From positions 6,874 to 70,873 of the forward strand of contig JBIKKP010000001.1 of the NCBI GenBank assembly GCA_044360285.1: a stretch of 64,000 nucleotides of DNA, given 5' to 3'. Source of the DNA: Rickettsiales bacterium (GTDB taxonomy: Bacteria; Pseudomonadota; Alphaproteobacteria; Rickettsiales; UBA1997). Below, one piece after another: positions 29,758-32,103 of this stretch (its first letter is position 1; every line of letters begins with the position of its first letter). A program made the position numbers and the translations under genes. The notes beneath the pieces were generated by a model. That model saw only the letters and a list, made by a program, of their open reading frames with translations, was not told where the DNA came from and made no database searches.

Positions 29758-32103
29758 ATGCCTGCTAAAAAAATCGCTAAAAAACTTCCGGTTAAAAAAG
29801 CTGCAAAGCCAGTAAAAAAGCCAGTTGCAAAAGCTAAGGTCGTAAAAAAACCAGCGGCAAAAATTGTTAAAAAAGCTGCGCCAAAAGTTGTTAAAGCAGC
29901 AAAGAAGCCAGAAATAAAAAAAGCTGTAAAAGCAGTAAAGAAGGCAGTTTCCAAGGCTAAAGAAATCAAAAAACCGGCACCAAAAAAAGAACTAAAAGCC
30001 GCAAAACCAGCAGCAAAAACAAAAGTCACCAAAGAAAAAGTGACCAAGGCAAAACCAGCTAAAGTTGCTAAAATCAAGGAACCAAAACCAAAGAAAGAGC
30101 CTAAACCAAAAAAAGAAAAGAAAGTTAAACCGGCAATTAATGATCGAACCGGCGCTTTGGCAGAAAAATATCAGCTGATTCAAGGCGTAAAAAACGCCAT
30201 CCAAAAGAAAGAGGATGAAGGTCAGAAGATCTCAATTGATATGGCCGAAAAGCTTAAAAAGCTTCTTGCGCTTGGCAAAACTCAGGGCTTTTTAACTCAC
30301 GATCAAATCAGCGAAAATATCGATGCCGAGCTTGATGCACGTAAGCTTGATCGCATCCTTGACATTCTAACCGAATTCAAAATTCAAATTGTTGAGCGCG
30401 AGGAAGATCTCGACAAAATCATGGAAGAAGCCATGAGCGCGAAGGACGAAGAAAAAAGTCAAAAACGCAGCGAAGATTCGGTAAAAACTTACCTCAAATC
30501 GATGAGCATCGTAAAATTGCTCACAAGAGAAGACGAAGTTGCCATCGCCATGCGAATCGAAGAAGGCCGCAACAAAACCATCCGCTCGCTTTACCAAAGC
30601 CCAATCATCATGCGCCACTTCATCGAGTGGTACAACGGCCTGGCGAATGGCACCATCTTGCTTCGTGACCTGATTAGAATTGACGAAACTTACAATTCCG
30701 AACTCGAAGAAATGATTCGCAATAACGATCAATCTGAACAAAGCGAAGAAGATTTGGCGGCGTTTTTAAGCGAGCAAGTTGACAGCGGAACAGAAAATCC
30801 TGAGGAAACTTTCTTCGAAGATGAAGAGTTGGAAGAAATTGACGAAAGTGTTGTTTCTTTTGTGTCAATGGAACGCATTTTGATGCCAAAGATGCTCGAT
30901 TTGTTCCAAAGAATTGCAACGATTTGTCAAAAAATTATCGACAAATCTTCGACCAAAACTCACGAGCAAATTAAAACCGACAAAGAGATCAATAAGCTGA
31001 AGCACGATTTCGAAGAACTTTCCAAAGAAGTCAGTTTCAACGATTCTTTGATCAAAGCTTTGGTTGAGCAGCTTTATGAAGCGCAACAAAAATTACTGGG
31101 AATTGAAATGGAATTGTTGCACCTGTCACGCAATTACAACATCGACAAAACCGACTTCCTGAAAAATTACCAAGGCATTGAAGAAGGCGACAAATGGATC
31201 AAAAAAATCGCCGCACTGAAAGATAAAAAATGGCAAAAATTCGCTGCGGAAGGACAAGCAAAAATCATCGAAATCCAAGCTAGAATCGCCAAATTCACCA
31301 AAATTATGGGCGTGAACATCAGCGACTTTAAGCAGATGATTAACGTGCTACGCAGAAGCCAAGAAGAAGAACTGCGCGCCAAAAAAGAAATGATTGAGGC
31401 CAACTTACGTTTGGTTGTTTCAATTGCTAAAAAATACACCAATCGCGGTTTACAATTCCTCGACTTAATCCAGGAAGGCAACATTGGCTTGATGCGCGCC
31501 GTTGACAAATTCGAATATCGTCGTGGTTACAAATTCTCGACCTACGCAACTTGGTGGATTCGCCAAGCAATCACGCGCGCCATTGCCGATCAATCACGCA
31601 CAATTCGTATCCCAATTCACATGGTGGAAACGATTAACAAAATCGTCAAAACCTCGCGCCAATTGACGCAAGAGCTTGGCAGATCGCCAGACGCGCAAGA
31701 AATTGCCGACAAACTTTTGATGCCAGTTGACAAGGTTCGTAAAGTTTTACGCACTTCAAAAGACCCAGTGAGTCTTGAATCGCCTATTTCAGGAGATGAT
31801 GAGGAAAGCGTGCTCGGTGATTTTATCGAAGACAAAACTGCAGTTCTTCCTTTCGACGCCGCTTCGCATTCTAAACTAAAAGAGGTGACCGCACAAATGT
31901 TGTCATCACTCACCGCCCGTGAAGAACGTGTGCTGCGCATGCGCTTTGGCATTGGCATGGTGACCGATCACACTTTGGAAGAAGTGGGTAAACAATTTTC
32001 CGTGACACGCGAACGTATTCGTCAAATCGAAGCGAAAGCACTGAAGAAATTGCAACATCCAAAACGCTCGAAAATTATGAAGAGCTTCTTGCAAGACGTG
32101 TAG
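29758..32103 (+). CDS. rpoD: RNA polymerase sigma-70 factor RpoD with a ~125-aa Lys/Ala/Pro-rich N-terminal extension
   Basis: Regions 1.1-4.2 are present ([78 protein letters not shown]). An alternative start is at 30241. Confidence 0.9.

Follow-up and report, generated by a model that had tools for sequence, protein, structure and literature searches.

A lysine-rich, predicted disordered N-terminal tail on the primary sigma factor RpoD of uncultured Rickettsiales-like bacteria, a possible electrostatic nucleic-acid tether

In the window, that is the whole 64-kb stretch of DNA that was analyzed, the primase gene dnaG (27954..29744, + strand; Pfam Zn_ribbon_DnaG, DNAG_N and Toprim) lies directly 5' of rpoD, which is the classical arrangement of these genes. 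The rpoD ORF (29758..32103, + strand), recognized from the ORF list and from Pfam and PDB matches, encodes a group-1 sigma-70 of 781 aa plus the stop codon. Its ATG at 29758 is located 14 nt past the last base of the dnaG stop (29744), and the coordinates agree with the first-pass annotation, which had described the frame as open from this codon. Pfam matches, each above its gathering score, were found for PF03979 (aa 164-235), PF00140 (240-271), PF04546 (282-512), PF04542 (545-615), PF04539 (624-701) and PF04545 (715-767), giving the region order 1.1, 1.2, NER, 2, 3, 4 of a group 1 (primary) sigma-70. Region 1.1 (30247..30462, + strand; aa 164-235) matched PF03979 with E=1e-10 over profile positions 5-77 of 81 and had an AF2 pLDDT of 70-77; its start at aa 164 bears out the earlier remark that this region becomes recognizable only from about residue 160. 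The closest PDB match was the RpoD chain 7ye1_F (E=1.5e-165, aligned from query aa 165), and E. coli sigma70 was matched at about 1e-133. This orthology, together with a dnaG-rpoD order that is also seen in relatives, identifies the protein as a primary sigma factor. Several independent metagenome samples yielded the identical 781-aa RpoD, on at least 7 contigs in all, and an RpoD carrying the tail described below is therefore not an assembly artefact.

Ahead of region 1.1, the protein begins with a Lys/Ala/Pro/Val-rich tail that is predicted to be disordered (aa 1-125; 29758..30132, + strand), delimited from composition, charge, AF2 and comparative data. Our recount of residues 1-120 gave 48 K (40%), exactly the number claimed before, together with 24 A, 15 P and 14 V; at the 9.7% K of the rest of RpoD, the chance of at least 48 K in 120 residues is 1.6e-18. 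Over aa 1-125 there are 51 K, 0 R and 7 E, which corresponds to a net charge of +44, and the composition is 41% K, 19% A and 13% P. Val makes up 12% of the tail and 14% of the pooled tails of relatives, and is unusually frequent as compared to H1-type sequences. The tail raises the pI of RpoD from 5.75 to 9.52, and the net charges of region 1.1 (aa 162-235) and the NER are -7 and -18. In the AF2 model, residues 1-129 have a pLDDT below 50 (about 28 in the tail) and lack secondary structure, so that aa 1-129 is predicted to be intrinsically disordered. The repeats had been called degenerate, and this description fits: the tail consists of KK doublets with A, P or V between them, with KPVK, VAKK and KVVK as the commonest 4-mers, TRF detected 24-, 9- and 15-nt units in the tail DNA at only 2.1-2.6 copies each, and the autocorrelation of K positions was weak (maximum 0.13 at lag 4).

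The tail is followed by a conserved, clade-specific linker (aa 126-161; 30133..30240, + strand), defined by an alignment of 96 distinct relatives and by AF2, which lies outside the Pfam match to region 1.1. Its consensus in these relatives is ND.T.aLAEkFQLIQdVrsAlqkk.DdeGK.klS, with L134, Q142, A147 and S159 as invariant columns. A helix is predicted by AF2 at aa 131-149 (nt 30148-30204, pLDDT about 62), and the boundary between tail and helix is sharp and marked by the conserved N-D-x-T motif.

Where translation starts decides whether the tail is part of RpoD at all. Just two in-frame ATGs precede region 1.1, one at 29758 (aa 1) and one at 30241 (30241..30243, + strand; Met162); GTG (aa 95) and TTG (aa 134) are further in-frame start codons. 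The ATG at 29758 is not preceded by a Shine-Dalgarno sequence ('ctaaaaaaaactt ATG'), a start at 30241 would yield an RpoD of conventional length (620 aa), and the ORF list holds an antisense ORF of 110 aa, rich in Phe, Ala and Gly (29745..30077, - strand). On these grounds the upstream 483 nt could be left untranslated in RpoD, with initiation at 30241 only or with the antisense ORF as the real gene, but we regard this as hardly credible. An SD-like 4-mer precedes only 2 of the 40 long ORFs in the window, and the absence of such a motif at 29758 is thus the norm here; no SD was found at a suitable distance before ATG 30241 either. In relatives the rpoD ATG is found 6-40 nt after the dnaG stop, and it is preceded by GAGG in nine of the MAG loci (L001-L006, L008, L011 and L019) and by related SD-like motifs in two others (AGGAG in L012, AAGGA in L014). 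The column of Met162 is Leu or Ile in nearly all of the 96 aligned relatives ('NDLADKLKKLL'), and the peptide upstream of it (aa 128-160) is conserved. A start at ATG 30241 was rejected for these two reasons, and starts at GTG aa 95 and TTG aa 134 were rejected since the N-terminal MAxKKK motif and the GAGG-ATG just after dnaG favour the first ATG. The antisense ORF is not considered a gene and was dismissed as a mirror artefact of the AAA/AAG Lys codons, as the conservation signals are all in the + frame.

The frame itself points the same way. Only a fraction of 5e-5 of mononucleotide shuffles of 29758-30240 were without an in-frame stop, and the other two + frames over the tail region hold 9 and 15 stops. 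The frame is open in every relative, and substitutions in the + frame bear the mark of purifying selection. With the frame, the N-terminal motif, the location behind dnaG and the purifying selection all conserved, the comparative data show that the tail is coding, as the first-pass annotation had argued, and the possibility of an untranslated upstream region is effectively refuted by them. Its suggestion of a second isoform from ATG 30241 fared less well: given the Leu/Ile at Met162 and the conserved peptide upstream, the two-isoform idea has no comparative support among the aligned sequences. It follows that the long rpoD gene models in these MAGs are correct and that trimming them to the internal ATG is unwarranted.

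A comparison of rpoD N-termini in relatives, proposed earlier as a check, revealed the same open Lys-rich extension throughout. All 120 of the 120 closest protein clusters (69-85% identity) comprise proteins of 707-868 aa that start with M-A-x-K-K-K and continue with 87-246 aa at 28-41% K, and in 22 of 22 species-level MAG loci the frame is open for 92-240 K-rich codons; across clusters and MAG relatives together the extension contains 21-41% K. When the tails were pooled (n=121), K amounted to 40.5% and the median net charge was +50; acidic and aromatic residues are nearly lacking even though the sequence changes. In the outgroup RpoDs of Acetobacteraceae, Sphingomonas and Magnetococcus, the place of the tail is taken by about 25 acidic residues (4% K). 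These comparisons show the Lys tail to be family-wide and to be absent from the nearest outgroups.

The tail evolves much faster than the rest of the protein, by about 10-fold as compared to the core. In close pairs, dN/dS was 0.20-0.33 for the tail vs. 0.02-0.05 for the core, with an excess of third-position changes in the tail, and the identity of core vs. tail was 98.5% vs. 83% for L003/L004 and 95.8% vs. 57% for L006/L008. Such rapid change is also compatible with weak constraint, and the tail may be seen as a tolerated low-complexity expansion that grows and shrinks near-neutrally through slippage-prone A-rich codons. The variable tail length (87-246 aa) with frequent indels, the dN/dS about ten times that of the core, the short DNA tandem repeats and a sequence that beyond MAxKKK is not alignably conserved would all fit this explanation. 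Yet the tail has been lost in 0 of 120 clusters and 0 of 22 species, dN/dS is well under 1, about 40% K is maintained and acidic and aromatic residues are nearly absent in spite of the sequence turnover, similar extensions occur in several separate RpoD lineages, and a +44 appendage on an essential and abundant protein is unlikely to be neutral. We therefore find a neutral expansion unlikely. Instead, the substitution and composition data show a tail that appears to be under purifying selection for composition, not for sequence. Among 132 divergent RpoD representatives, 19 carry an extension that is 40 aa or longer and contains 20% K or more; these are scattered across the NJ tree, a recurrence which argues for a general selective benefit.

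The first-pass annotation likened the tail to the C-terminal tails of histone H1 and to Hc1-type tails. H1 CTDs contain about 40% K and are rich in A and P, and the 41% K, 19% A and 13% P found here uphold the comparison as far as composition goes. Like the H1 CTD, chlamydial Hc1/Hc2, Pseudomonas AlgP and Bordetella BpH1, the tail has a K/A/P-dominated, strongly cationic and (predicted) disordered character. The likeness did not extend to profile matches: the Linker_histone winged helix of Pfam was matched neither in the full RpoD nor, at E<=10, in aa 1-161, and the Pfam profiles Hc1 and HC2 gave no match to aa 1-161 at E<=10. One relative, P0107, has a precomputed PF07382 match, which most likely is driven by composition. 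The S/TPKK motifs of H1 are absent from the tail, the regular KPAA array of AlgP/AlgR3 is not seen in a tract with so few TRF copies (2.1-2.6) and such weak K autocorrelation, and, unlike H1 and the H1-like proteins, which stand alone, the tract forms part of a sigma factor. With the tail as sole query, Pfam (E<=10) returned a single, meaningless match to CT47 (E=8.6), phmmer against the PDB (E<=10) returned none, and among 5.8 billion proteins 8000 word-sharing candidates were found, 0 of them at E<=1e-3. Composition-corrected scoring misses even orthologous tails, and membership of the tail in a family is hence not demonstrable by sequence. Since profile, structure and sequence matches are all missing, the tail is, as judged from its sequence, H1-like by composition only.

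A close parallel in architecture is Streptomyces DdbA, where an H1-like N-terminal domain makes a DksA-like protein bind and condense DNA (PMC3643593). As in RpoD here, a Lys-rich N-terminal segment is placed on a protein that acts on RNAP, but in DdbA the partner is a secondary-channel factor that is developmentally regulated and non-essential, while here it is the essential primary sigma. Also primary sigma factors have been reported to bear lysine repeats, namely Streptomyces HrdB and Bordetella pertussis RpoD (Strzalka et al. 2017, PMC5714199), and actinobacterial repeats of this type also occur in TopA, HupS and Ku. Such repeats stabilise the TopA-DNA complex, and they are enriched among DNA-binding proteins (PMC5714199; Szafran et al. 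2019, PMC7398561). The tail likewise consists of degenerate Lys-rich repeats on a primary sigma and, judged by composition and not by the published motif definition, qualifies as a lysine-repeat tract (51 K in 125 aa, with KK doublets, on a sigma factor). It far exceeds the actinobacterial repeats in length and purity (125 aa, 41% K), and it also differs from them in occupying the very start of the protein, ahead of a conserved helix and region 1.1, and in being family-wide in uncultured Rickettsiales-like bacteria. Lysine repeats have been proposed as a trait of GC-rich genomes (PMC5714199; PMC7398561), a suggestion contradicted by a tail in a window of 42% GC. In our literature searches, nothing relevant came up on Lys-rich primary sigma factors of Rickettsiales or other alphaproteobacteria. 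We know of no functional work on sigma-borne lysine repeats.

Another precedent is SigA of M. tuberculosis, which has a disordered N-terminal extension, part of it essential in vivo (PMC10011835). SigA without its disordered N-terminal 205 aa shows an about 100-fold lower steady-state Vmax, and the extension is thought to lie close to the channel for downstream DNA (PMC11888270). No structure shows this extension, which is regulated by phosphorylation and belongs to a sigma reported to be without a canonical region 1.1 (PMC10011835; PMC11888270). Both proteins thus have a long disordered N-terminal extension that is specific to the housekeeping sigma, the disorder here being predicted by AF2: pLDDT is below 50 at aa 1-129, ahead of region 1.2, and the number of solved sigmas aligning to aa 1-160 is 0. 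In contrast to SigA, RpoD here has the tail plus a recognizable region 1.1, and the tail is without sign of phosphorylation control. The SigA chains in the PDB do not align until query aa 540. The mycobacterial extension is much less Lys-rich than the RpoD tail and unrelated to it in sequence, and SigA is for these reasons only a loose functional precedent. That a tail on a primary sigma would be functionally unusual, as the first-pass annotation put it, was overstated in view of HrdB and B. pertussis RpoD (PMC5714199), the essential SigA extension and the tails in other uncultured RpoD lineages. The RpoD tail is a striking new example of lysine repeats on primary sigmas, already noted in other bacteria.

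Taken together, we favour, at a probability of roughly 0.55, a reading where RpoD is made from 29758 as tail, linker and sigma body and where the tail is an electrostatic nucleic-acid tether. Primary sigmas normally rank with the most acidic proteins that a cell makes, and the acidic region 1.1 is a DNA mimic that keeps free sigma off DNA. Here, a whole bacterial family has placed a polycation (+44 in the present RpoD) on region 1.1, which makes the sigma basic. By analogy with the systems above, we infer that the tail may bind DNA or the nucleoid; it would then act as a non-specific tether in the manner of the H1 C-terminal tail or the actinobacterial 'lysine repeats'. Being joined to the N-terminus of region 1.1, which occupies the downstream-DNA channel of the holoenzyme, the tail could hold sigma or holoenzyme on the nucleoid, could offset autoinhibition by the acidic region 1.1, and could touch flanking DNA and in that way give a faster or more stable open complex and holoenzyme recycling. 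If the tail binds DNA, the picture of promoter search, autoinhibition and sigma release in these organisms would have to be revised, and this RpoD would be an extreme natural model for the repeats and extensions of HrdB, B. pertussis RpoD and Mtb SigA.

Duplex DNA need not be the main partner of a translated tail. Polycationic tails also bind RNA and polyphosphate, as does H1-like AlgP, which localises to and organises polyphosphate granules (PMC9239181), and a tail that is long, uniform, polycationic and predicted to be disordered could interact in the same way, form condensates or fold in cis onto region 1.1, its acidic linker or the NER. The neighbouring sigma segments are indeed acidic (region 1.1 -7, NER -18), and the conserved helix between tail and region 1.1 could dock another partner. 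The sequence does not tell one polyanion ligand from another. Where lysine repeats have been studied to date, in TopA, HupB, Ku and DdbA, their target is DNA (PMC7398561, PMC5714199, PMC3643593). As to folding in cis, the +44 of the tail is far above the -7 of region 1.1, and neutralisation within RpoD alone would not require 90-240 residues. We consider a partner other than duplex DNA a tentative alternative, with about one chance in four.

It is very unlikely that the tail is an N-terminal pro-sequence or a regulated degron, either cut off or used to control the sigma level. Pro-sequence processing is found in sigma E and sigma K of Bacillus, the disordered tail would be accessible to proteases, and the sharp tail/helix boundary with its conserved N-D-x-T would fit such a reading. 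Against this, sigma E and sigma K have short pro-sequences that are not polycationic, a cleavage signal would not need a composition conserved over 90-240 aa, and to our knowledge there is no precedent for processing of a primary sigma.

A more far-reaching version of the tether is that the housekeeping sigma doubles as a histone-like nucleoid protein in tiny, genome-reduced epibiotic Rickettsiales, with sigma and, through it, RNAP condensed permanently on the chromosome. We hold this to be doubtful. If it were so, the tail would possibly act through condensates driven by DNA, RNA or polyphosphate and would substitute for lost nucleoid-associated proteins or transcription factors; the sigma cycle would be altered, since released sigma would not diffuse freely, and the helix at aa 131-149 would serve this mode as its own docking or regulatory element. 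Within the 64-kb window, a general habit of Lys tails finds no support: in no other ORF did we observe a comparable Lys tract. Only bL28 shows a basic extension at its C-terminus, and a modest one.

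The rpoD reading frame of the window opens, as the first-pass annotation had proposed, at an ATG shortly after the stop of dnaG (27954-29744, + strand, with Pfam primase domains): 13 intergenic bases separate the genes, and the 781-codon ORF runs from 29758 to 32103 on the + strand. Pfam placed region 1.1 at aa 164-235, only after about residue 160 as had been noted, followed by region 1.2, the non-essential region and regions 2, 3 and 4, and on this domain order the protein is therefore classed as a bona fide group-1 sigma factor. The closest solved structure is an RpoD chain (7ye1_F, E=1.5e-165), and no PDB sigma aligns ahead of residue 161-165 of the window protein. 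The same 781-aa protein was found, identical, on at least 7 contigs from several metagenome samples. A 232-aa ORF (32300-32998, - strand) carries a P-loop-like GPQACGKTHL motif without a Pfam match and shares ~50 nt with the 5' end of gatC (second ORF coordinates 32946-33233, - strand); it may be an Hda/DnaA-related protein.

A count of residues 1-120 gave the 48 Lys reported earlier, together with 24 Ala, 15 Pro and 14 Val, and residues 1-125 hold 51 Lys, no Arg and 7 Glu. Given 9.7% Lys in the remaining protein, the chance of at least 48 Lys in 120 residues is 1.6e-18. The tail has a net charge of +44 and the rest of RpoD -10, and the tail shifts the pI from 5.75 to 9.52. The repeats described earlier were recovered by TRF in the same degenerate form (units of 9-24 nt, 2.1-2.6 copies only). 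AlphaFold2, run on a 52-sequence alignment, predicted no secondary structure for residues 1-129 (pLDDT ~28), a helix at aa 131-149 (pLDDT ~62) and a folded region 1.1 (pLDDT 70-77). The tail alone had no match in Pfam, PDB or the sequence database, and no other ORF of the window has a comparable Lys tract. A far milder Lys-rich extension is seen in bL28 (16521-16874, - strand, 117 aa), in which the Pfam L28 match is limited to aa 3-62 and the C-terminal part runs out into basic residues, KIVKEKKAKVAKKTAA.

The earlier proposal that the tail is translated is borne out by the relatives, whose N-termini keep the upstream region as coding in all cases. All of the 120 best-matching protein clusters (69-85% identity, each 707-868 aa, MAG labels Rickettsiales, Pelagibacterales or Proteobacteria) begin with M-A/V/P-x-K-K-K, followed by 87-246 residues with 28-41% Lys up to region 1.1. 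Likewise, the frame is open through 92-240 Lys-rich codons in 22/22 related MAG species drawn from a species-representative genome collection (65-83% identity). In the window, only 5e-5 of shuffles of the 483-nt stretch (29758-30240) are stop-free in frame, and the other two forward frames contain 9 and 15 stops. The first rpoD ATG in relatives lies 6-40 nt past the dnaG stop, preceded at proper distance by GAGG in nine MAG loci (L001-L006, L008, L011, L019) and by related SD-like motifs in L012 (AGGAG) and L014 (AAGGA). In L017, L018 and L020 the Lys-rich frame is open for >200 codons; an ATG occurs only far downstream or not at all, and the start is probably GTG or TTG. The window rpoD start has no Shine-Dalgarno, as is the case for 38/40 long window ORFs (≥200 aa, first ATG taken, SD-like 4-mer sought at -18..-4); the 2/40 positives suggest that Shine-Dalgarno initiation plays little part in this genome, despite the clear GAGG in several relatives.

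A strongly conserved segment of 35 residues immediately precedes Met162; its consensus is ND-T-ALAEKFQLIQDVRSALQKK-DDDGK-LS, and L134, Q142, A147 and S159 are invariant. This clade-specific linker (30133-30240, + strand, aa 126-161) joins the Lys tail to region 1.1, is not covered by the Pfam model of region 1.1 and includes the predicted helix; since the peptide is conserved it must be translated, and it could be a docking element. The internal ATG at 30241 had been put forward as the start of a second isoform, which is unsupported, as nearly all relatives have Leu or Ile in place of Met162 and the conserved peptide lies upstream of this position. Taken together, clusters, MAG frames, start context, linker peptide and selection make translation from 29758 very well supported, with no support for a conserved second isoform. 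Wrong-start readings of rpoD are excluded by the comparative data, which also rule out as a gene a 110-aa Phe/Ala/Gly-rich antisense ORF (29745-30077, - strand) that mirrors the Lys-rich coding region, a predictable artefact that could be wrongly annotated as a membrane protein.

For the tail, dN/dS in seven pairs of close species was 0.20-0.33, with an excess of third-position changes, and for the sigma core 0.02-0.05. Between L003 and L004 the core is 98.5% identical and the tail 83%, with one 8-residue indel; between L006 and L008 the values are 95.8% and 57%. The 121 tails compared have a median length of 130 aa and a median net charge of +50; pooled, they contain 40.5% K, 14% V, 11% A and 8% P, and acidic and aromatic residues are almost nil. 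Composition is steady while the tail sequence changes fast, and therefore selection keeps composition, charge and disorder rather than the sequence itself, as is typical of a functional polyelectrolyte IDR. That the tail is a nearly neutral low-complexity expansion ranks third among the readings we consider.

The order along RpoD is a conserved, translated polycation that is predicted to be disordered, then a conserved predicted helix, then region 1.1, which sits in the downstream-DNA channel of the holoenzyme until open-complex formation expels it. We consider it most likely that the tail would act as an electrostatic tether to nucleic acid, in the first place DNA. Anchored at region 1.1, it could keep free sigma or holoenzyme on the nucleoid and counteract the DNA-mimic autoinhibition by region 1.1; it could also touch flanking DNA, with effects on isomerisation and on recycling. 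In TopA, lysine repeats make the complex with DNA more stable, and DNA-binding proteins are enriched for such repeats (PMC5714199); the H1-like domain of the DksA-like DdbA confers DNA binding and condensation (PMC3643593). Mycobacterium tuberculosis SigA without its disordered N-terminal 205 aa has a ~100-fold lower Vmax (PMC11888270), and part of this extension is essential in vivo (PMC10011835). Second in preference, the tail may bind other polyanions, such as RNA, polyP or sigma's own acidic segments, with AlgP as precedent for polyP (PMC9239181). A cleavable pro-sequence comes fourth.

The suggested H1 likeness holds for composition, and the tail might work like the H1 C-terminal tail by analogy; it did not match the H1, Hc1 or Hc2 profiles and lacks AlgP-type regular repeats. 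It also looks similar to the 'lysine repeats' of actinobacterial DNA-binding proteins and may work similarly. The earlier observation is thus confirmed and its interpretation partly supported. Lysine repeats on primary sigmas are already on record as a general phenomenon, in Streptomyces HrdB and Bordetella pertussis RpoD, and were suggested as typical of GC-rich genomes (PMC5714199). In contrast, the present tail occurs in a 42% GC genome, is longer and purer, is located at the very N-terminus of a protein that also has a normal region 1.1, and is fixed throughout an entire family of uncultured Rickettsiales-like bacteria. A literature search found no paper describing it. A basic primary sigma with such a robustly conserved tail offers a clean natural system for the role of lysine-rich or disordered sigma extensions.

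By their titles, the closest genomes are MAGs from freshwater lakes, among them 'Rickettsiales bacterium UBA1997', 'UBA2645' and 'Baikal-deep-G64', which would place the window in family UBA1997. According to a preprint that does not mention the RpoD Lys tail (10.1101/2023.01.31.526412), members of this family are freshwater Rickettsiales of small size (0.65 x 0.44 um) and have an epibiotic life on cryptophyte algae. Ahead of region 1.1, the RpoDs next in similarity (Acetobacteraceae, Sphingomonas, Magnetococcus; 42-47% identity) carry only ~25 acidic residues with 4% Lys. When clustering a library at 50% identity, all members of the clade fall under one representative (P0121), and Lys-rich N-extensions (≥40 aa with ≥20% Lys) were found in 19/132 other RpoD representatives. 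Nine of these from divergent metagenomic lineages (P0220, P0169, P0249, P0161, P0175, P0184, P0132, P0123 and P0269) are 38-49% identical to the window protein, with 47% K over 132 aa in P0220 and 40% K over 100 aa in P0169. On a rough NJ tree, whose deep nodes are unreliable, Lys-rich RpoDs are scattered and several adjoin neighbours with short N-termini, which suggests repeated gain. The RpoD of MAG 'Rickettsiales bacterium DT_106' (L068:3724-4300, 45% identity) has ~60 Lys-rich residues, next a strongly acidic segment and after it region 1.2, while region 1.1 is not recognisable; this basic-then-acidic layout is reminiscent of mycobacterial SigA. The window also encodes a two-piece (permuted) alpha-type tmRNA (13665-14156, - strand, Rfam RF01849, 145 bits), which confirms its origin from an alphaproteobacterium at class level.
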